This document shows, piece after piece, positions 10,066-19,255 of a stretch of DNA of 64,000 bases. Source of the DNA: an uncultured Nitrospinaceae bacterium (lineage in GTDB: Bacteria > UBA8248); the NCBI GenBank assembly GCA_964558115.1, contig CAZLCI010000001.1, positions 6,336-70,335 on the forward strand, given 5' to 3'. Position 1 is the first letter of the stretch, and the number at the start of each line of letters is the position of its first letter. The notes under the pieces were generated by a model. The model saw only the letters and a list, made by a program, of their open reading frames with translations. It did not search any database and had not been told where the DNA came from. The position numbers and the translations under genes were made by a program.

Positions 10066-11106
10066 ATGCGAGCAGTAATTCTCAAAGCATTTGGTGGCAG
10101 TGAGAATTTTGAGGATGGAGAATGGCCTGAGCCTAGCCCTATTTCTGGGGAAGTCAAGATCAGAGCAAAAGCAGTTTCTGTAAATCCCACGGACTATAAA
10201 GCACGTTTGGGCGGAAATGAAGGCGCGGTCCCTATTATTTTAGGAAGAGATACTGCTGGTATCGTAGAAGAAGTTGGTGAGAATGTAGATCGTTTTTTTC
10301 CTGGAGACGAAGTAATGGCTTATCTGCCTCGTTTTGGTGATAGCGGGGGAAACGGTTATGCAGAATTTGTTTGCGTTCCCCATGAATTTGTGGCGAAAAA
10401 ACCTAGCAATTTAACTTTTGAGGAGGCAGCTTCGATTCCTTTGGTATCTTTAACTGCGTATGAAGCAGTTTCTATAAAGTCAAATGTCGAAAAAAACGAA
10501 TCTGTTTTTGTGGCAGGAGGTTCTGGAGGAGTGGGGAGTATGGCAGTACAGATGCTTCGTTTCTTTCAGGCAGATCCTTTAATAGTTACAGCGGGAAGTG
10601 ATGAAAGTGCGGTTTATCTTGAAGAACTCGGAATAGAACCCGACAAAATTGTTTTATATTCTGGATTGTCTCTGGATGATGTATATGAAAAAGTTGTGTC
10701 GATGAATAATGGTAAATTGCCAAGAGTTACTTGTGATTTTGTTGGAAAGGATATGAAAAAACTTTGTATGCGCCTTGTTGATTTTCTTGGTCGAGTCGTT
10801 TCGATTGCTCCAGAAGAGGGAGCGCCTATTGATAACTTTTTCTCATCGAAAACAGGACCTATGTATACGAAATCTGCATCCTTTCACAGCGTTTTTTTAA
10901 GATCTCCTGTAAGAGGTGGAGGTCCTGATTACTACGGTGTGTATATGAAGTCTCTGGAAACAATTAGAAACTGGTTAGCGGATGAAGTTTTAAGACCTGG
11001 TAAGCTGGATATAATTGGTCCAATGAACTCCAAGAATATAAGTCATGCACACACTCTTTTGGAAGACGGACACGTAAAGGGTAAGATAGTTCTTCCAGTT
11101 GAATAA
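10066..11106 (+). CDS. MDR-family NADPH:quinone oxidoreductase / zinc-type alcohol dehydrogenase-like
   Basis: 346 aa; MRAVILKAFGG start, GGSGGVGSMAVQ Rossmann motif. Confidence 0.75.
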   Translation: MRAVILKAFGGSENFEDGEWPEPSPISGEVKIRAKAVSVNPTDYKARLGGNEGAVPIILGRDTAGIVEEVGENVDRFFPGDEVMAYLPRFGDSGGNGYAEFVCVPHEFVAKKPSNLTFEEAASIPLVSLTAYEAVSIKSNVEKNESVFVAGGSGGVGSMAVQMLRFFQADPLIVTAGSDESAVYLEELGIEPDKIVLYSGLSLDDVYEKVVSMNNGKLPRVTCDFVGKDMKKLCMRLVDFLGRVVSIAPEEGAPIDNFFSSKTGPMYTKSASFHSVFLRSPVRGGGPDYYGVYMKSLETIRNWLADEVLRPGKLDIIGPMNSKNISHAHTLLEDGHVKGKIVLPVE

Positions 11107-11200
11107 TCTTAATGTTTGAGAGTTTTTGTAATAAAAAAGGTGTAAGATTTTCTAGATACTCGGGAAAATTTCAAGAAATGAAGTTGCTTATATTCGAAGA

Positions 11201-11512
11201 GTGAAGATAATGTTGTTTGACGATAGTTTCACTCACTTTATTTTTCTTTTTTTTAAGGAGTGGTTTTTGAAAAAGGACAGCTTAGGAAAAGAAGATAGGG
11301 AAAATGTTTCCGATAGTCCTGTTGAGAGAAATCTTAGGAGAATATTTGGTCAGATGAGTTTCGAGAAGAGTAATGTATACGAAGCTGGGACTAGAAATGA
11401 TGGAGAAGAAAATATGGATCGTCTAAAAACATTTTCTTCGAAGAAAAAAATTAGAGCAAAAAGAAGAGAAAGAAAAGAAAATAACGGACCAAATTATGTT
11501 CCAGGTCCCTAA
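11201..11512 (+). CDS. Hypothetical K/E/R-rich small protein (doubtful)
   Basis: 103 aa ORF in purine-rich 430-bp gap upstream of mqn cluster; low complexity, may be non-coding. Confidence 0.2.
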   Translation: MKIMLFDDSFTHFIFLFFKEWFLKKDSLGKEDRENVSDSPVERNLRRIFGQMSFEKSNVYEAGTRNDGEENMDRLKTFSSKKKIRAKRRERKENNGPNYVPGP

Positions 11513-11534
11513 ATTTTTATAAGGTAGGTAAAAA

Positions 11535-12674
11535 TTGGATAACCAGTACTATGAAACATATCTTCGAAAGACTTCATTGTCAGAAGTTTTGCAGAAAGTA
11601 GATAAAGGAGATAGATTATCATTTGAAGACGGTCTCTCTTTATACGCTTCAAATGATATTAATGCGATAGGATACTTAGCTAATAAAGTTCGAGAACGAC
11701 TTCATGGTAATCGTACTTTTTACAATGTGAATAGTCATATTAATTATTCGAATGTTTGTGTCTTGTGGAAGGCTTGTAAATTTTGTGCTTTTGGAAAAAA
11801 AGAAGGGCAGCAAGATGCGTACTCCTATTCGTTAGAAGAAATTTTTAAACAGGCGGAAGAACTGGGGAAAGGCCGTACGGAATTTCATATGGTCGGAGGC
11901 CTTCATCCTGACTTACCGTTTGATTATTACTTAGAGATGATTCACGGTATTAAGGAAATTCATCCTCATCTTCATCTGAAATGTTTTACTTCAACTGAAA
12001 TACGTTGGATTGCAGATCATATTGCCAAGATGAGTATTGAAGAAACTTTGGAAACATTGGTTAGAGCAGGACTTGGTTCCCTTACAGGTGGAGGGGCTGA
12101 AATTTTTGCAGAGCCAACAAGATCGAAAATATGCAAAGGGAAACAGTCTGCAGAGGATTGGCTAGAAGTTCACCGAATTGCACACAACATGGGATTATCT
12201 AGTACATGTACTATGTTATATGGCCATATTGAGACTGATGCTGATAGAGTAGATCATATGTTACAACTTCGAGAATTACAGGATGAGACCAATGGTTTTA
12301 CAACATTTATTCCACTATCCTTTCACCCCGATAATACACAAATGAGTGATGTACGTCCTTCTGGTGGCATTTTAGATTTAAAGAATTATGCTGTTAGTAG
12401 ACTTTTATTGGATAATATTCCACATATTAAAGCTTATTGGATTATGGTTGGTCTTCCTATTGCTCAATTAAGTCAACAATATGGAGTAAATGATTTAGAT
12501 GGGACTGTTGTTCAAGAAAAAATTTATCATATGGCTGGAGCTCAAACTCCATCTGAATTAACGGTTGATTATATACGAAATATTATTAGGGAAGTTGGTA
12601 GAGAGCCAGTAGAAAGAGATACCCTCTATAATGAGGTGATTCGTGAAGGAGAGAAATGGGCAGTTCATGCTTAA
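11535..12674 (+). CDS. Radical SAM enzyme of the MqnC/MqnE family (futalosine pathway)
   Basis: 379 aa; NYSNVCVLWKACKFCAF cysteine motif (Cx5Cx2C), HPDLP, TGGGAE, paralog of ORF 15020; MqnC vs MqnE assignment not resolvable by eye. Confidence 0.75.
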   Translation: MDNQYYETYLRKTSLSEVLQKVDKGDRLSFEDGLSLYASNDINAIGYLANKVRERLHGNRTFYNVNSHINYSNVCVLWKACKFCAFGKKEGQQDAYSYSLEEIFKQAEELGKGRTEFHMVGGLHPDLPFDYYLEMIHGIKEIHPHLHLKCFTSTEIRWIADHIAKMSIEETLETLVRAGLGSLTGGGAEIFAEPTRSKICKGKQSAEDWLEVHRIAHNMGLSSTCTMLYGHIETDADRVDHMLQLRELQDETNGFTTFIPLSFHPDNTQMSDVRPSGGILDLKNYAVSRLLLDNIPHIKAYWIMVGLPIAQLSQQYGVNDLDGTVVQEKIYHMAGAQTPSELTVDYIRNIIREVGREPVERDTLYNEVIREGEKWAVHA

Positions 12675-14965
12675 GACTCGGAACAGTTCCTTTCATTAAT
12701 GCAAGACCTCTTACATTCAGTCTCGAAAATAATGAAAACATTCAAATTGTTAGTTTCCCTCCTAGTGAACTATCTTCACTTTTAAAAGATAATAAGTTAG
12801 ATGGTGCATTAGTTTCTTCGTTTTCTTTATTTAGATTAAAGAATTCTAGATATGTGCCTAAAATTGGGATAGTAAGTAATGGTCCAGTAGAAAGTATTCG
12901 CCTGTATTGTAGAAAACCCGCGGATACATTGCAGGTGGTTGGTCTAGATTCTTGGTCTCTTTCCGCAAGCAATATGTTACGCGTTCTGCTGAAACACCGA
13001 TGGGGAGTAGAACCAAAGTTCGTTCCTGTAAATCCCAAAATACCTCCAAAAGAAGATAATCAATTAGATGCATTTCTTTTAATTGGTGACAATGCATTAA
13101 GAGAGCCTCCAGGAGATTTTTATGTGGTGGACTTAGGAGATGAATGGACTGCGTTCACAAAGCTTCCTTTTGTGTATGCAGTCTGGGTTTTCCCGGAAGG
13201 TAAAGGAAATTCTGATATCGCGTGTGAATTAATTAAATCAAAAGAAGAAGGGATTAAGAATCTAGATAAAATTACTTCTGTTCTTGCAAGTGAGAATTTA
13301 TTTATAAAAGAAGGAGATATCCGTAATTATTTAACAAATTGTATTTTATACGATGTGGGAGAAAAAGAGGAAGAAGGGCTAAATTTATATTACGATTACT
13401 TACAGAAAGATGGTCTTGTGGAAAAAGGATGGATTGCGAGGAAATTACCTGTACCAGACATTCGTTTCCATAAAGAAGGAGCAGAAAATCAAAAGGAAGA
13501 TTTAGAAATTTTTAATTCTTCTAATTCTCAAGAAGACGAGCAACTTTGTTTTAAATCTATTGCTGATGTGTCTTCCATGATTAGAGAAAAGAAAATTTCA
13601 CCTTTAGATCTTACACAGTCTTTCTTGAAACAAATTGAAAAAATAAATAGTAAATTGAACGTATACGTTACTGTTACAGAAGAAGAAGCGTTAAAAAAGG
13701 CGACAAAGGCAGAGAAAGAAATCAATAGAGGAAATTATAGAGGCCCTTTGCACGGTATCCCTTTTGCGGCAAAAGATATCATTAATACGGAGAAAATCCT
13801 TACTACAAATGGTTCTAATTTTTTTAAAGATCATTACCCTGACAAGGACGCGTTTGTAATAAGTTCTCTTTACGATGCAGGTGCTGTTTTGTTGGGTAAA
13901 GTGAATACTCATGAGTTTGCTGGGGGTTCAACAACCATCAATCCATTCTATGGTACTACTAAAAATCCATGGAATACCGAGAGGATAGTAGGAGGTTCTA
14001 GTGGAGGTTCTGCGGCTGCCGTAGCTTCGTATTTGACGACTTTTTCATTGGGAACCGATACAGGCGGTTCGATAAGAACTCCTGCTGGTTTTTGTGGTGT
14101 TGTAGGTCTTAAGCCTACTCATGGAAGAGTAAGTTTATCTGGAGTTTGTCCAAACGTTTTGAGCTTTGATCATGTAGGACCGATGGCAAGAAGTACAGAA
14201 GATATAGCTATAATTCTTGAAAGTATGGCAGGGTATGATTTTCAAGATTCTAAATCTAAAGATATTCCTGTTCCAGAATATTCTTCAACCATTGATCAGG
14301 GAATCAAGGATAAGAGGATTGTTATCTGTCCGGATTTTTATAATCATTCTGATGTCGATTCTGCAGTACGAGAAAATTTTGAAAGTGCATGTTTGGTTTT
14401 TGAAAGTCTAGGAGCAATTGTAGAGGAGATCCCTTTCCCACATTTTGAAAAAGTAATGAATATTTTTCCGAAGATAGCTGGACCGGAGTTTTCAGAATTT
14501 CATAGATCCTTTTTTGAAAAGAATCCAAAAAGTTATGGAGAAGATATTTTAAAACGTCTTGATTGGTCTTTTGAAATTTCAATGGACGAGTACGTTAGAG
14601 GTTTGCGTGAACGTGAAATTTTCCAAAGAGAAATGGAGGAATTTTTCAAAACTTTTGATGCTCTTATTTCTCCGGCTCTTCCGTGTGTTGCTCCAACAAT
14701 AGAAGGTCTCAAAGCTAATATAGACAAAAAAGAAATAGTTTATGATTATCTGCATCGACCATTTTTAACTCCTCATAATGTAACAGGATTTCCTGCATTA
14801 GTTTCTCCTACGGGATTTGACCAAATTGGGATGCCTACCTCTATACAGATTGTTTCTGGTCCATGGAAAGAGGAAAGTTTATTCCAGATTGCGCATGCTT
14901 TTGAAAAAGAGAGTTCATCATATAGAAATGTTATTCCTGAAATTATACTTAGAGAGAATGGTTAG
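12656..14965 (+). CDS. mqnA: Bifunctional-looking fusion: MqnA chorismate dehydratase domain (aa ~1-275) + amidase-signature enzyme (aa ~295-769)
   Basis: N-term LRLGTVPFINARPL MqnA motif; C-term typical AS-family N-terminus (ISPLDLTQSFLKQIEKINSKLNVYVTV), AAKDII Lys, GGSSGGSAAAVA Ser-cisSer-Lys block; single uninterrupted 769-aa ORF. Confidence 0.75.
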   Translation: MGSSCLRLGTVPFINARPLTFSLENNENIQIVSFPPSELSSLLKDNKLDGALVSSFSLFRLKNSRYVPKIGIVSNGPVESIRLYCRKPADTLQVVGLDSWSLSASNMLRVLLKHRWGVEPKFVPVNPKIPPKEDNQLDAFLLIGDNALREPPGDFYVVDLGDEWTAFTKLPFVYAVWVFPEGKGNSDIACELIKSKEEGIKNLDKITSVLASENLFIKEGDIRNYLTNCILYDVGEKEEEGLNLYYDYLQKDGLVEKGWIARKLPVPDIRFHKEGAENQKEDLEIFNSSNSQEDEQLCFKSIADVSSMIREKKISPLDLTQSFLKQIEKINSKLNVYVTVTEEEALKKATKAEKEINRGNYRGPLHGIPFAAKDIINTEKILTTNGSNFFKDHYPDKDAFVISSLYDAGAVLLGKVNTHEFAGGSTTINPFYGTTKNPWNTERIVGGSSGGSAAAVASYLTTFSLGTDTGGSIRTPAGFCGVVGLKPTHGRVSLSGVCPNVLSFDHVGPMARSTEDIAIILESMAGYDFQDSKSKDIPVPEYSSTIDQGIKDKRIVICPDFYNHSDVDSAVRENFESACLVFESLGAIVEEIPFPHFEKVMNIFPKIAGPEFSEFHRSFFEKNPKSYGEDILKRLDWSFEISMDEYVRGLREREIFQREMEEFFKTFDALISPALPCVAPTIEGLKANIDKKEIVYDYLHRPFLTPHNVTGFPALVSPTGFDQIGMPTSIQIVSGPWKEESLFQIAHAFEKESSSYRNVIPEIILRENG

Positions 14966-15019
14966 TTTTGTTATTTATGGCATAATTTTTTCGTAATTTA
15001 TTACGGAGATGATTTAATA

Positions 15020-16093
15020 ATGGCAGAAAAAAGATTTTACGAGGTAATAGAGAAAACCTTACTTGGTGAAAGATTATCTTCAGATGACTGTCTTGTATTG
15101 TTTCAAGGTGATGACTTAGTTGCGCTCGGCGCTGCTGCTGATCAAATCAGAAATTCTTATCACCCAGGGCGTATTGCTACTTATTGCGTTGATCGAAATA
15201 TAAATTATACGAATGTATGTGATGTTTATTGTACATTCTGTGCATTCTATAGACCTCCAGGTGGACATCCCGAATCATATGTAAGAACAAAAGAAGAAAT
15301 CAAGGAAAAGATAGATGAATTATATTCTTTGGGAGGAAAGCAGATTCTATTACAAGGAGGACACCACCCAGATCTGCGAATAGAATGGTATGAAGGTTTA
15401 TTTTCATGGATGAAGGCTGAATATCCCGATCTACATTTACATGCGCTGAGCCCTCCAGAGATTTATCATATTTCCAAACTAGAAGATATGCCGTTTGAAG
15501 TTGTAATAAATAGGTTGCATCAAGCTGGTCTTGATTCTATTCCAGGAGGTGGTGGGGAAATTTTAGTAGATCGAGTTCGAAACAAGATTTCAAAATTAAA
15601 AGTCAATACAGAAGGGTGGCTCGAAATTATGAGAGTAGCACACGGTCTTGGTTTGCGATCTACTGCTACAATGATGTTTGGTCATGTGGAAACTCTAGAA
15701 GAGAGAGTTGAACATTTAAATTCTTTAAGAGAATTGCAGGATCAAACAAAAGGTTTTACTGCATTTATTTGTTGGACTTTCCAGAATGACGGTTCTGCAA
15801 CTCTAAGAGTTCCCACAGTAGGTAGTAGTGAATATTTAAAAACATTGTCTATCAGCAGACTTTTTTTAGATAATATTCCAAATTTTCAATCTTCTTGGGT
15901 GACTCAAGGAATGAAGATTGGAGAACTTTCCCTTCACTATGGTGCAAATGACATGGGGTCTACTATGATTGAGGAGAATGTCGTGAGTTCTGCGGGCACG
16001 ACTTATTGCCTGAATGAAGAAGATTTGAGTGTCATGGCAAAGAATGCTGGTCTAGTGCCGAAAAGACGAAATTTTTTCTATGATTTAGTCTGA
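15020..16093 (+). CDS. Radical SAM enzyme of the MqnE/MqnC family (aminofutalosine synthase or cyclic dehydroxyfutalosine synthase)
   Basis: 357 aa; canonical NYTNVCDVYCTFCAF (Cx3Cx2C), PGGGGEI, paralog of ORF 11535. Confidence 0.8.
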   Translation: MAEKRFYEVIEKTLLGERLSSDDCLVLFQGDDLVALGAAADQIRNSYHPGRIATYCVDRNINYTNVCDVYCTFCAFYRPPGGHPESYVRTKEEIKEKIDELYSLGGKQILLQGGHHPDLRIEWYEGLFSWMKAEYPDLHLHALSPPEIYHISKLEDMPFEVVINRLHQAGLDSIPGGGGEILVDRVRNKISKLKVNTEGWLEIMRVAHGLGLRSTATMMFGHVETLEERVEHLNSLRELQDQTKGFTAFICWTFQNDGSATLRVPTVGSSEYLKTLSISRLFLDNIPNFQSSWVTQGMKIGELSLHYGANDMGSTMIEENVVSSAGTTYCLNEEDLSVMAKNAGLVPKRRNFFYDLV

Positions 16094-16103
16094 TTTTTCT
16101 TTC

Positions 16104-17381
16104 GTGAAAGAATTAAGTTTGGATAACACTAAAGATACATTTCAACTATGGACAGCCGATCTTATTTGCCCGGTAAACGATTTACCTATAAGAAATGGAG
16201 CAGTTTTAACTTCAAATGGTAAAGTTTTAGCAGTAGGAGAGGAAGAATTTATTCGTCCTCACAGCACTTTTGTAACCGAGAGACACTTTGAAAACTCGAT
16301 TCTTATTCCAGGACTAGTGAATTCACATACACATCTTGAATTAAGTGGTATGCAAATTTTACCATCGAAACTGTCGGAATGGATTCCAAATTTAGTATCG
16401 CAAACAAGAGAGTGGCCGAGTCATTTATTTCTTTCTTCCTCAAGGATTGGAACAGCTAAAAGTATTTCTTCAGGCGTAACCTGTGTTGGAGATATTAGCG
16501 TCTCGGGTGAGAGTAAGACAGCTATTGTTGATGCAGGAATGAGGGGCATAATTTTTCATGAATTTTTAGGAATTAATGAAAAAGAAGCTGAATCAATTTT
16601 TAATAAAAAAATAGCAGAAATTTATGAATCTAAGGATTACGAAGGAGAATCGAACGAATTTGTTCGTAATGGTCTTAGTCCTCATTCTCCTTATTCTGCT
16701 TCTTTCGATCTTTATAATAGAATTGTGTCTCATGGAAGTTCAAATAATTTCAAAGTAGCAACACATCTTCTTGAAAGTCCAGATGAGTTGCAATTTTTGC
16801 AGACTGGGGAAGGTGATTTTCAAGAGATGTTCGAAAGATTACAAAGTGATATAGATTTTTTTGAACCTTTCGGTTGCAGTCCCATAGAGTTTTTTAATCA
16901 AAAGGGGATTCTTCGAAATATTCATCTAACTATTCATTGTAATCAAACGGATGAAAATGATTGGAGATTATTACGGACAAACGGAGTCTATGTTTGTGTT
17001 TGTCCAAGGTCTGCATCTTTTTTTGATCATGCTTTAGCAGATATTCGAGGAATGAGGAATCAAGGAGTAATGTTGTGTCTAGGGACAGATAGTCTTGCTA
17101 GTTCTCCTTCTCTATCTGTTTTGGAAGAAGCAATAGCCTTAAGAGAAGCAGATAGTACTATCGAAGCAAGTGAACTTCTTATGTATTGCACACTCTCTGG
17201 TTCAAAGGCTTTAGGATTTGAAAATGAAGGAATTGGTTCAATTATGCCTGGAGGTGTTGCAGATTTTGCAGTTGTAGAAGTATCCAAAGACCATAAATAT
17301 TTAGATATAGAACATATTTTCGACAAACGTTCGGTTGTTGGATGTACTGTTATAAATGGGATGATACGATTTGAAAAATAA
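16104..17381 (+). CDS. Amidohydrolase-superfamily deaminase (aminodeoxyfutalosine/MTA/SAH deaminase-like)
   Basis: 425 aa; LVNSHTHLELS metal-binding HxH, downstream His/Asp ligands (GTDSLAS); position in mqn cluster. Confidence 0.6.
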   Translation: MKELSLDNTKDTFQLWTADLICPVNDLPIRNGAVLTSNGKVLAVGEEEFIRPHSTFVTERHFENSILIPGLVNSHTHLELSGMQILPSKLSEWIPNLVSQTREWPSHLFLSSSRIGTAKSISSGVTCVGDISVSGESKTAIVDAGMRGIIFHEFLGINEKEAESIFNKKIAEIYESKDYEGESNEFVRNGLSPHSPYSASFDLYNRIVSHGSSNNFKVATHLLESPDELQFLQTGEGDFQEMFERLQSDIDFFEPFGCSPIEFFNQKGILRNIHLTIHCNQTDENDWRLLRTNGVYVCVCPRSASFFDHALADIRGMRNQGVMLCLGTDSLASSPSLSVLEEAIALREADSTIEASELLMYCTLSGSKALGFENEGIGSIMPGGVADFAVVEVSKDHKYLDIEHIFDKRSVVGCTVINGMIRFEK

Positions 17382-17464
17382 ATATTAATGGGTTTGAATA
17401 AGTAAGAATTTTGTAATCAATTAATTTATGGGCCTAGATAGTCCAGAGAGGAGAATTTTTTCTG

Positions 17465-18070
17465 ATGCCAAAAAAAGAAATGTTATTTGATAAAACTAAT
17501 TGGAGAACTAGAAAACCAAGATATGATGTAGCAGAGGCAAAAATCGGAAGGGTGCTAACGGTGAGAATGGCACCGGGAGATGATTTATTCGGAACCACAG
17601 TAAAAATATGCAAGGAAAAAAAATTAAAATCAGGAGTGATATTGAGTGTAGCAGCTAGTCTTAGAAAAGCGACATTAAGAAATGTATGGAAATTTCCAGA
17701 ACCTTTCCCTATTAATGATGAATGTAGAATCTTTACTCCTATCAATGGACCATTAGAACTTTTGCAAATGAGCGGCAATATTACACAGACAGAAAATGGA
17801 GAACCTTATCTTCATGCGCATGTAACTATTTCTATGGGAAGGCCAGAAGCGACATGCTTCGGAGGCCATCTTGTTGAAGGATGTGAAATTTTTAGTACTT
17901 GCGAGATGGTGATAGCAGAGATTGATGGTATTGATTTTATGAGACTGATGGATAAGCATACACGTGTAGGCGAAATATATGGAATCGAACTTGAGGGAAA
18001 AAGTTCTACTCAAGTAAAAAAAGCTATTTCTGATAGAAAGAAACGTCCTAAACCTAATGGAGTTAGGTAG
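17465..18070 (+). CDS. PPC/DUF296 domain protein
   Basis: 201 aa; LHAHVTIS...GGHLVEG pattern of the PPC (DUF296) fold. Confidence 0.4.
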   Translation: MPKKEMLFDKTNWRTRKPRYDVAEAKIGRVLTVRMAPGDDLFGTTVKICKEKKLKSGVILSVAASLRKATLRNVWKFPEPFPINDECRIFTPINGPLELLQMSGNITQTENGEPYLHAHVTISMGRPEATCFGGHLVEGCEIFSTCEMVIAEIDGIDFMRLMDKHTRVGEIYGIELEGKSSTQVKKAISDRKKRPKPNGVR

Positions 18071-18346
18071 TTTCCTTTTCGTCAGATGATTTTTGAGATT
18101 TCTTAAATCGTTGATTCATACTTTGTGCTATTCCACCTATTACGGCTGAAACTACGTTGAAAGTTGAGTCTAGAGTTTCTTCTGATATTTCTTTTTTTCT
18201 AGCATCTGCTAGACGGTGGTTTACTCAGGGTTGGCAGTTTCTCGTGATAGCTACTGAGAGACCTATTAGAATTTTTTCTCTTTCTGTCAACAGATCGGAA
18301 CTGTGTGCATCACGATAAAATTTTCGGAAATCTGATTTGTCTGACA
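18062..18346 (-). CDS. AhpD/carboxymuconolactone-decarboxylase-like selenoprotein (in-frame TGA = Sec at codon 41); not in ORF track
   Basis: Minus-strand ATG 18346..18344 with AAAGGA RBS; MSDKSDFRKFYRDAHSSDLLTEREKILIGLSVAITRNCQP-TGA-VNHRLADARKKEISEETLDSTFNVVSAVIGGIAQSMNQRFKK...; TGA (plus 18224..18226) falls where the second Cys of the CMD C-x-x-C...H motif sits, giving CQPU-VNH; 6-bp hairpin 12 nt after TGA. Confidence 0.55.
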
Positions 18347-18469
18347 TGATTAGTCCTTTGTAAGAGGTTTGGTGAAATTATGGATAAAAATGAAATACTA
18401 GCATTTATCCTAAACGAGTTTTAATATTTTCATCAAATAATTTTACTAAAAATTAACAAGAGGTGAAAT

Positions 18470-19255
18470 TTGGAGCTGGGACTTAAGGGCAAAGTTGCAA
18501 TTATAACTGGAGGTAGTGCTGGTCTTGGTCTAGCATCTGCATGTGAATTGGCAAAAGAGGGTTGTCATGTAGCTATTTGCGCAAGAAACTCAGAGAGACT
18601 TATGAGCGCAAAAAACAAAATCGAACAAATTGCAAATGCTGAAGTTTTGGCAATTCAAAGTGATGTCTCTACTATTTCTGATACAAAAAAAATAGTGGAG
18701 GAGGTAATAAATCATTTCAGTACAATTCATATATTACTTAGTAATGCTGGTGTTAGTTTGACAAAAAACTTTCTGGATCTTGAAATCAAAGACTGGAAAG
18801 AATTGATGGATCTTAATCTTTATGCTGGAGTTCAATTATGTAAAGAAATTATTCCTTACATGCAGAGACAAAAGTGGGGTCGAATTATTTTTACCGGTTC
18901 AACTAGCATCAAACAACCAAGAGAAAAAAGAAGTGTCGCGAATGTTACGAAATCTACACTTTTAAATTTTATGAAATCTATAGCAAATGAATTTATTCTA
19001 GATGGGATTCTTGTGAATATGATAAGCCCGGGACGTTTTGATACACATTGGGAAGAGAGGATTAACGCAATGTCTTTAGAAACTGGAAAATCTAGAAATG
19101 AAATTTACTCCGATGTTATTAAAGATATTAAAATAGGCCGTCTTGGGAAGCCAGAAGAGTTTGCAGCTGCTGTTGCATTTCTTGCTAGCGAAAGAGCTAG
19201 TTTTATTACTGGAATCAATATGCAGGTTGATGGTGGAGAATTGAGAAGTATCTAA
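18470..19255 (+). CDS. Short-chain dehydrogenase/reductase (SDR)
   Basis: 261 aa; GKVAIITGGSAGLGLA cofactor motif, NAG, catalytic Y-x3-K region. Confidence 0.8.
   Translation: MELGLKGKVAIITGGSAGLGLASACELAKEGCHVAICARNSERLMSAKNKIEQIANAEVLAIQSDVSTISDTKKIVEEVINHFSTIHILLSNAGVSLTKNFLDLEIKDWKELMDLNLYAGVQLCKEIIPYMQRQKWGRIIFTGSTSIKQPREKRSVANVTKSTLLNFMKSIANEFILDGILVNMISPGRFDTHWEERINAMSLETGKSRNEIYSDVIKDIKIGRLGKPEEFAAAVAFLASERASFITGINMQVDGGELRSI

Follow-up and report, generated by a model that had tools for sequence, protein, structure and literature searches.

A single gene in the window (the whole stretch of DNA analyzed, 64,000 nucleotides of a marine Nitrospinota genome) joins a chorismate dehydratase (MqnA) to an amidase-signature (AS) enzyme in one continuous reading frame. 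The fusion is confirmed, and on balance we favor an account, set out below, in which its product is an evolutionarily stable two-enzyme polypeptide that arose by read-through and whose amidase is an operon passenger. We found no report of an MqnA-amidase fusion in the literature on futalosine, on chorismate dehydratase or on Nitrospina, Nitrospinota and Tectomicrobia, and a comparative-genomics paper on the Nitrospinota mentions neither menaquinone synthesis nor an amidase. What is new is the architecture, namely, MqnA fused to an intact amidase and stable across a phylum-level clade; the parts were already known. Besides being a drug target, the futalosine route serves as a marker of early quinone evolution, and the clade carrying the fusion includes the main marine nitrite oxidizers.

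The fusion gene and its conservation

The fusion gene (12656..14965, plus strand) has an ATG start and 769 codons followed by a stop codon, with no internal stop, and its 5' end overlaps the 3' end of mqnE by 19 nt. Pfam searches matched PF02621 (VitK2_biosynth) at residues 6 to 250 (E = 1.4e-44; profile positions 1 to 251 of 252) and PF01425 (Amidase) at residues 318 to 742 (E = 2.3e-112; profile positions 1 to 444 of 445). From the PF02621 match, matches to MqnA structures in the PDB and invariant residues, we delimited an MqnA domain of residues 1 to 262 (12656..13441); from the PF01425 match, alignments with GatA structures and a conservation table, we delimited an AS domain of residues 297 to 769 (13544..14962). 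Between these lies the linker, residues 263 to 296 (ARKLPVPDIRFHKEGAENQKEDLEIFNSSNSQEDEQ; 13442..13543), and all three lie on the plus strand. These domain matches, together with the invariant residues described below, bear out the proposal of an earlier note that this is a genuine in-frame fusion of two enzymes, both catalytically intact as judged by their residues.

Full-length proteins of the cluster formed at at least 90% identity with the 769-residue product were found in NCBI, JGI, ENA, Logan and Tara assemblies, and the cluster representative was found on 8 contigs. MqnA-amidase fusions, which the earlier note had proposed seeking in other genomes, are present there: both domains lie in one open frame in 28 of the 31 GTDB species representatives with clade-type MqnA (related Nitrospinota and Tectomicrobia MAGs), and these 28 include closed chromosomes of 3 to 4.5 Mb. 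A search of 1.84 billion representatives returned a single fusion cluster among its best 150 matches, and none of those 150 was a second MqnA-amidase architecture from outside the Nitrospinota/Tectomicrobia lineage. Purifying selection is equal on the two modules and relaxed on the linker (dN/dS of 0.08 to 0.14 for MqnA, 0.11 to 0.14 for the amidase and 0.2 to 0.9 for the linker). The suspicion of two separate genes brought together by a sequencing or assembly frameshift, or by contig chimerism, stems solely from the metagenome-type source assembly, and the recurrence of the cluster in independent assemblies, the identical frame in 28 species and the signature of selection on a continuous frame make such an artifact vanishingly improbable and exclude the frameshift that the earlier note had wanted checked. 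An AlphaFold2 model built from a 20-sequence alignment of fusion proteins was poor (mean pLDDT, 53.5; pTM, 0.52).

The linker and the origin of the fusion

The linker, of about 35 residues, varies in both sequence and length in the alignment of homologues. In 22 of 29 fused genes, it contains an in-frame Shine-Dalgarno (SD) sequence of the AAGGAGG type followed by ATG or GTG, and this fossil start coincides with the N terminus of the stand-alone amidases (M-x-D-D/E-x-LC[FY]). Stand-alone MqnA proteins, for their part, end 8 to 17 residues past the GW motif. We infer that the linker combines the old C-terminal tail of MqnA with a translated former intergenic spacer. The fossil SD and start sites in relatives suggest that two adjacent genes merged through loss of the mqnA stop codon, whereupon translation would have run on through a spacer of about 15 codons and into the operon gene that followed, which encoded a stand-alone amidase.

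In the window, the sequence GAAGGAG is found at 13473-13479 with no start codon after it, and the ancestral Met position of the amidase reads Q or E in the window's lineage. The ancestral SD and start codon have been erased in this lineage, and the earlier note was right that the junction holds no usable internal start in the window. The fused amidase domains were not monophyletic in a weak, star-like neighbor-joining tree; such trees are indicative only, and this one is compatible with one ancient fusion followed by fission or with several independent fusions. The lack of monophyly could mean that fusion recurred; that would point to selection for linkage and so count against the amidase being a passenger.

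The amidase in the futalosine operon

The fusion gene sits in a futalosine operon, in agreement with the earlier note, and both flanking genes score above NCBIfam cutoffs on the same strand. Directly upstream lies mqnE (aminofutalosine synthase; 11535..12674; TIGR03700, 492 bits against a cutoff of 434.55), and directly downstream, at a distance of 54 nt, lies mqnC (cyclic dehypoxanthinyl futalosine synthase; 15020..16093; TIGR03699, 480 bits against a cutoff of 428.1). These are followed, again on the plus strand, by a gene for an aminofutalosine-deaminase-like amidohydrolase (16104..17381; PF01979; NF006269 at 183 bits, below the cutoff of 320), syntenic in nearly all related loci, and by the conserved last gene of the cluster, encoding a PCC/DUF296-domain protein (17465..18070; PF03479) that is 77 to 82% identical across the wider clade and 93 to 97% identical in the window's own clade. 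Promoter/terminator, Rfam and tRNA scans gave no feature that would split the operon or account for the 430-nt gap upstream of mqnE. A triple MqnE-MqnA-amidase fusion, suspected because GC-rich relatives have open frames as long as 1,135 codons, was rejected, as mqnE always lies in another reading frame.

The mqnE-mqnA-mqnC order of the window recurs in 30 or more related loci, and in a deep clade within which MqnA identity is only about 55%, 30 of 31 lineages have an amidase gene, fused or unfused, directly downstream of mqnA. Unfused mqnA and amidase genes occur at L003, L034 and L064, where the amidase gene is still within the mqn cluster. In the sister lineage L019, NadA and NadC fill the slot between mqnA and mqnC, and the amidase is absent there. 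Of the closed Nitrospinota chromosomes (e.g., OZ242260.1, OZ244713.1 and OZ245330.1), OZ245330.1 has no amidase in this slot. The cargo of this slot is variable among lineages, and the amidase stays beside mqnA while the other cargo turns over, an observation that speaks against regarding it as a passenger. No amidase was found within 7 kb at the 22 MqnA loci recovered from other phyla (Dehalococcoidia, Planctomycetota and Marinimicrobia among them), 15 of which have the compact mqnE-mqnA-mqnC order.

Stand-alone relatives of the amidase (e.g., P0024-P0120) are 472 to 475 residues long and 51 to 57% identical to it across the whole domain. Those labeled "amidase" by NCBI come from Thermodesulfobacteriota, Methylomirabilota, Nitrospinaceae and Burkholderiales MAGs, and the only source names in this subfamily are "amidase" or an automatic "GatA." In six distinct contexts outside the clade, stand-alone genes adjoin ABC or Tct transporter genes or housekeeping genes (an SBP_bac_1 ABC transporter, TctABC genes, and YchF with CTP_transf_like [PF01467]) and never mqn genes. 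Every conserved residue, including K373, S448, S472, H419-E420, H616-R617, R634 and the H700-R701-P702-F703 motif, is identical in the stand-alone proteins, and a comparison of fused amidases with 95 stand-alone relatives revealed no fusion-specific conserved position.

A conserved neighborhood combined with a fusion is a classic signature of a functional link. It is possible, if distinctly the less probable case, that in Nitrospinota and Tectomicrobia the amidase assists the futalosine pathway, or the handling of chorismate, as an unrecognized accessory enzyme. It might, for example, hydrolyze a dicarboxylate precursor protected as an amide or ester, or a side-product, at step one, and fusion would then secure stoichiometry or proximity. 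Consistent with such coupling are the persistence of fusion and mqnA adjacency in the deep clade, the position of the gene within an operon with no detectable terminators, purifying selection as strong as that on MqnA, and a pocket with invariant R634 and R701 and no amino-binding Asp, which may suit an anion of the chorismate or 3-enolpyruvyl-benzoate (3-EPB) type. However, the active-site residues are the same in relatives from non-mqn contexts, the amidase is missing from the mqn clusters of other phyla, and the slot in L019 is occupied without it. In addition, the internal SD and start retained in most fused genes would give free amidase, which speaks against a need for the covalent link as such, and we know of no amide intermediate in the described futalosine route.

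The earlier note had taken the fusion to imply either that a futalosine-type intermediate is amidated or that a moonlighting or salvage activity is coupled to step one, and neither is supported. Against this inference stand the lack of fusion-specific conserved residues, the unrelated contexts of the stand-alone relatives, the 22 amidase-free loci, the NadA/NadC pair in L019, and the ribosome binding site (RBS) and start of the formerly separate amidase kept by most fused genes. That note had also held that relatives with separate genes and an amidase unrelated to menaquinone synthesis would speak against its view. Separate genes do exist, but at all three loci the amidase remains in the mqn cluster, which leaves a functional link between the amidase and menaquinone synthesis weakened. 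The view that the amidase has nothing to do with menaquinone is drawn from context, not from biochemistry.

A further proposal, which we consider improbable, is that the futalosine pathway of Nitrospinota and Tectomicrobia has an extra, undescribed hydrolytic step performed by this amidase subfamily. Such a step could take an amide or ester protecting group off a chorismate- or 3-EPB-like dicarboxylate or clear a side-product formed at step one. A Rosetta-stone trace of this link would then be seen in the fusion to MqnA, and the equally conserved PCC/DUF296 protein might be a second unrecognized component. The amidase probably adds no new step to the futalosine route. We lean instead toward an overall explanation in which stop codon loss fused two independent modules and the amidase is carried along by the operon. 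The modules would most likely act independently at either end of a flexible, fast-evolving acidic linker, and the fused amidase, a long-term passenger, would catalyze the reaction that its stand-alone relatives catalyze.

If the two activities are unlinked, as the evidence favors, the gene is a clean, datable case of fusion by stop codon loss, in which most lineages still show the fossil RBS and start codon and that of the window has lost them, and it cautions against inferring pathway chemistry from fusion alone. If they are linked, it would reveal a missing or modified step of menaquinone synthesis. Either way, attention is drawn to a large, highly conserved amidase subfamily of uncharacterized members.

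Catalytic residues and comparison with known systems

In the AS domain, K373 of the AAKDII motif (codon at 13772-13774), S448 of GGSSGGS (13997-13999) and S472 of TDTGGSIR (14069-14071) represent the Lys, cis-Ser and nucleophile of the AS triad. They align with the triad of GatA and are invariant in 20 fusion proteins and 125 aligned amidases, and the GGSSGGS signature (residues 446 to 452) fits the GGSS[GS]GS of the AS superfamily. The C-terminal module would be a Ser-cisSer-Lys hydrolase, competent as judged by its residues, of a widespread, uncharacterized subfamily of about 473 residues in the neighborhood of GatA and AtzE. Its stand-alone members are separate genes in non-menaquinone contexts outside the Nitrospinota.

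With GatA (Staphylococcus aureus 2DF4/2F2A; Aquifex 3H0L), the fused amidase shares the AS fold family, the triad, the GGSSGGS signature, a comparable length and an N-terminal helix. GatA structures were its best PDB matches (approximately 245 bits), TIGR00132 was its top NCBIfam match, and JGI automatic annotation labels its relatives GatA, which would favor a GatA-type glutaminase yielding ammonia from glutamine, either as the GatA of the cell or for chorismate amination. However, the TIGR00132 score was 338 bits against a cutoff of 481.1, and of the glutamine-binding residues Tyr309, Arg358 and Asp425 of S. aureus GatA, which correspond to F604, R634 and R701, the Arg alone is retained, the Asp-to-Arg change being invariant. 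GatA identity was rejected on these two grounds; no GatB- or GatC-like Pfam domain was found among the neighbors scanned at 10066-19255, and a role as a glutaminase is very unlikely. R634 and R701 are putative substrate-binding arginines. Retention of the carboxylate-binding Arg of GatA (R634) and replacement of its amino-binding Asp with R701, which is invariant, point to a small anionic amide lacking an alpha-amino group, rather than glutamine, as the probable substrate.

AtzE (1-carboxybiuret hydrolase, 6C62), another AS enzyme, gives family scores about as high as those of GatA (NF006631, 334 bits against a cutoff of 461; TIGR02715, 324 bits against 425.75), and membership was rejected because these lie below the cutoffs. 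The substrate of AtzE is an anionic amide, in keeping with the arginine-rich pocket proposed here. In contrast to AtzE, no conserved small partner of the AtzG/GatC type is apparent for the fused amidase, and the cluster has no triazine or urea catabolic genes. In the window, no small open reading frame (ORF) separates the fusion gene from mqnC; at L003, two ORFs of 84 and 86 residues, with no Pfam match recorded, follow the unfused amidase, and they are absent at L064.

The PDB matches of the N-terminal domain were MqnA structures only (7ahr, 2nxo, 2i6e and 6o9a); no MqnD structure matched at an E value of ≤0.01, and no NCBIfam model matches the domain. N15 (codon at 12698-12700), S80 (12893-12895), Y225 and G144, invariant in 20 fusion proteins, align with Asn17, Ser86, Tyr242 and Gly151 of ScMqnA, whose roles are catalytic or substrate orienting (PMC9672406). 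With these residues intact and the gene in its canonical place between mqnE and mqnC, this module would be a chorismate dehydratase of the ordinary kind, making 3-EPB from chorismate for the MqnE encoded just upstream. The MqnA fold is that of periplasmic binding proteins (PMC9672406), and the MqnA-like half might be conceived as a nonenzymatic Venus-flytrap domain that senses a ligand or delivers it to the amidase, but this is hardly credible: every residue needed for chorismate dehydration is invariant, mqnE and mqnC flank the gene, and neither the window nor any related locus has a second PF02621-type gene. The 64-kb window contains no further MqnA/MqnD-like or amidase gene.

The module thus resembles the known MqnA proteins (Streptomyces coelicolor SCO4506, 7AHR/2NXO; Deinococcus radiodurans 2I6E) in its full-length PF02621 match, its four residue equivalents, its place in the cluster and, presumably, the predicted substrate-assisted dehydration of chorismate to 3-EPB, at an identity to the solved structures of only about 25 to 30%. 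To our knowledge, described MqnA proteins are single-domain proteins of about 270 to 290 residues, whereas the protein encoded here continues beyond MqnA into a linker of about 35 residues and an amidase of about 473 residues.

The fusion gene and its cluster

The 769-codon gene at 12656..14965 on the forward strand opens with ATG, contains no internal stop codon and encodes full-length Pfam matches to PF02621 (VitK2_biosynth; residues 6-250, E 1.4e-44) and PF01425 (Amidase; residues 318-742, E 2.3e-112). Across 125 aligned sequences, neither the GGSSGGS signature of the amidase nor its triad (K373, S448 and S472) varied; the earlier note had described MqnA joined to an intact amidase-signature enzyme, and that description was accurate. 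Comparison with the three closest relatives gave dN/dS values of 0.08-0.14 for the MqnA domain and 0.11-0.14 for the amidase domain, versus 0.2-0.9 for the linker (13442..13543). These sequence comparisons indicate that selection maintains both modules and that the linker is merely a tether. The AlphaFold model of the fusion was of too poor quality for domain packing to be read.

The upstream mqnE (TIGR03700, 492 bits), which shares its last 19 nt with the beginning of the fusion gene, and mqnC (TIGR03699, 480 bits), 54 nt downstream of the fusion gene, both exceed their cut-offs, which bears out the proposed location inside a futalosine cluster. Farther on lie genes for an aminofutalosine-deaminase-like amidohydrolase (16104..17381; best family match NF006269, 183 bits against a cut-off of 320) and a PCC/DUF296-domain protein (PF03479; 17465..18070, forward strand). 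No terminator-like sites were found between any of these genes. A triple MqnE-MqnA-amidase fusion was ruled out, since the MqnE frame differed from that of the fusion in every locus compared. Neither mqnB/MTAN nor mqnD was found near the cluster, so the genes for the remaining steps must lie elsewhere, or those steps must proceed differently.

The PCC/DUF296 protein, which has counterparts in loci L001-L038 of other genomes, is the most conserved of the cluster, with 77-82% identity across the wider clade versus just 50-57% for MqnA, amidase and amidohydrolase. Its gene comes after the aminofutalosine-deaminase-like gene wherever a locus reaches that far, except in L019, and we know of no role for it in menaquinone synthesis. 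Upstream of mqnE is an unusually long gap of ~430 nt (11107..11534), in which the sole ORF (11201..11512, 103 aa, GTG start) is doubtful and no Rfam family or convincing promoter was found. The whole 64-kb window yielded no tRNA genes and no Rfam families at the gathering threshold.

Origin of the linker and role of the amidase

Stand-alone amidases of the same subfamily begin with M-x-D-(D/E)-x-L-C-(F/Y). The linkers of 22 of the 29 fused genes have an ATG or GTG, in frame and exactly at this start position, with a Shine-Dalgarno-like sequence at the right distance before it (typically AAGGAGG-ACGAC-ATG; loci L014-L040, e.g., about 7820-7850 in L015). Such relatives may, judging from these signals, produce free amidase besides the fusion. 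The fossil start has been lost in the window's own clade (window and L011-L013) and in three other genomes; the earlier statement that the junction lacks an internal start and ribosome-binding site thus holds for the window and fails for most relatives. Stand-alone MqnA proteins of this clade end 8-17 residues past the conserved GW motif. Together, these positions suggest that the linker consists of the old MqnA tail and some 15 codons of former spacer, now translated, and that the two genes became one through loss of the stop codon that ended mqnA. Read-through would have joined the operon neighbors mqnA and the amidase gene, bringing the intergenic spacer into translation.

The closest relatives of the fused amidase are stand-alone enzymes of 472-475 aa (51-57% identical) from Thermodesulfobacteriota, "Deltaproteobacteria," Methylomirabilota, Burkholderiales and Nitrospinaceae MAGs, none with an informative name. 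No alignment column was conserved in 28 fused domains but different in 95 stand-alone amidases, indicating that the fused amidase has gained no distinct active site. Outside Nitrospinota, mqn genes were absent from six distinct neighborhoods of stand-alone members: two adjoin an SBP_bac_1 ABC transporter, two have TctABC genes nearby and two are flanked by YchF and a CTP_transf_like (PF01467) gene. With moderate confidence, we favor a bifunctional read-through fusion of an ordinary MqnA and an amidase that would act independently, with the presumed anionic-amide specificity of its stand-alone relatives. The amidated futalosine intermediate suggested in the earlier note is required by no finding.

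The main rival, a genuine functional link between amidase and MqnA, is possible but doubtful. It would account for the fact that 30 of the 31 lineages in this deep Nitrospinota/Tectomicrobia clade have kept the amidase adjacent to mqnA or fused with it while other cargo between mqnA and mqnC turned over. That cargo is variable and lineage dependent: the window clade has the fused amidase alone; the large fused clade adds an alpha/beta hydrolase and a Fer2-adenylate/guanylate cyclase (L015, 9331-11883); three Nitrospinaceae-type loci (L003, L034 and L064) carry a PEMT/ICMT-like membrane methyltransferase (L034, 7698-8621), an unfused amidase and a toxin-antitoxin pair. However, L019 (7951-11709) has NadA, NadC and a 345-aa protein without assigned function but no amidase, and none was found within 7 kb of mqnA in 22 loci from other phyla, the Dehalococcoidia order being a compact mqnE-mqnA-mqnC. 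The unspecialized active site, the unrelated contexts of its relatives and the internal start kept in most fused genes, which would give free amidase, also argue against a link.

In a neighbor-joining tree of MqnE, MqnC and MqnA, distance based and without support values, fused lineages flank the unfused and amidase-less group on both sides, a pattern that fits either two or more fusions or an old one with subsequent fission and loss. The amidase tree, built likewise, is star-like and does not separate one fusion from several.

Distribution of the architecture

Full-length 769-aa members of the fusion's ≥90%-identity cluster, among them MBE17516.1 (NCBI, "Nitrospinae bacterium" MAG), occur in NCBI, JGI, ENA, Logan and Tara assemblies, and the cluster representative by itself is present on 8 contigs. 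We surveyed one genome per GTDB species with the MqnA-domain alignment as query, followed by tblastn with the amidase domain. Of 31 loci with an MqnA ≥47% identical, 28 had both domains in a single open frame, closed 3-4.5 Mb chromosomes included, answering the earlier call for a search of other genomes. That a sequencing or assembly error joined two genes is therefore very unlikely, and the fusion is genuine, as had been claimed. Record titles of these loci name Nitrospinota, Nitrospinaceae or Tectomicrobia. One contig with a Nitrospinota-type mqnE/MqnA-amidase/mqnC cluster (L017, JAKZRQ010000265.1) belongs to a MAG labeled "Pseudomonadales bacterium"; this label or the binning is probably in error. 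When 1.84 billion representatives were searched exhaustively with HMMER, the best 150 matches included one fusion cluster only and no second MqnA-amidase architecture outside the Nitrospinota/Tectomicrobia lineage.

Comparison with known MqnA and GatA enzymes

The solved structures matching the N-terminal domain were exclusively MqnA chorismate dehydratases (7AHR, 2NXO, 2I6E and 6O9A), with no match to MqnD. Mutagenesis and structures of Streptomyces coelicolor MqnA identified Asn17, Ser86, Tyr242 and the Gly151 backbone as key (PMC9672406); the equivalent N15, S80, Y225 and G144 are invariant across 20 fusion proteins, and it is highly improbable that this half is a non-catalytic binding domain. 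UniProt automatically names one fusion member "Chorismate dehydratase," and the architecture went unmentioned in the literature searched.

Among solved structures, the amidase domain is matched best by those of GatA subunits (about 245 bits) and of AtzE. It reached no NCBIfam equivalog cut-off, scoring 338 bits against 481 for GatA and 334 against 461 for AtzE. Staphylococcus aureus GatA binds glutamine through Tyr309, Arg358 and Asp425 (bioRxiv 10.1101/733030). Arg358 is kept as R634, whereas Tyr309 is replaced by F604 and Asp425 by R701, inside an invariant H-R-P-F motif. With only Arg358 retained and a score so far below the cut-off, we rejected a GatA-type glutaminase as scarcely credible. 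This residue pattern predicts a substrate with a carboxylate and no alpha-ammonium group. MqnA-amidase is a new domain architecture that combines known families rather than a system of a new kind.
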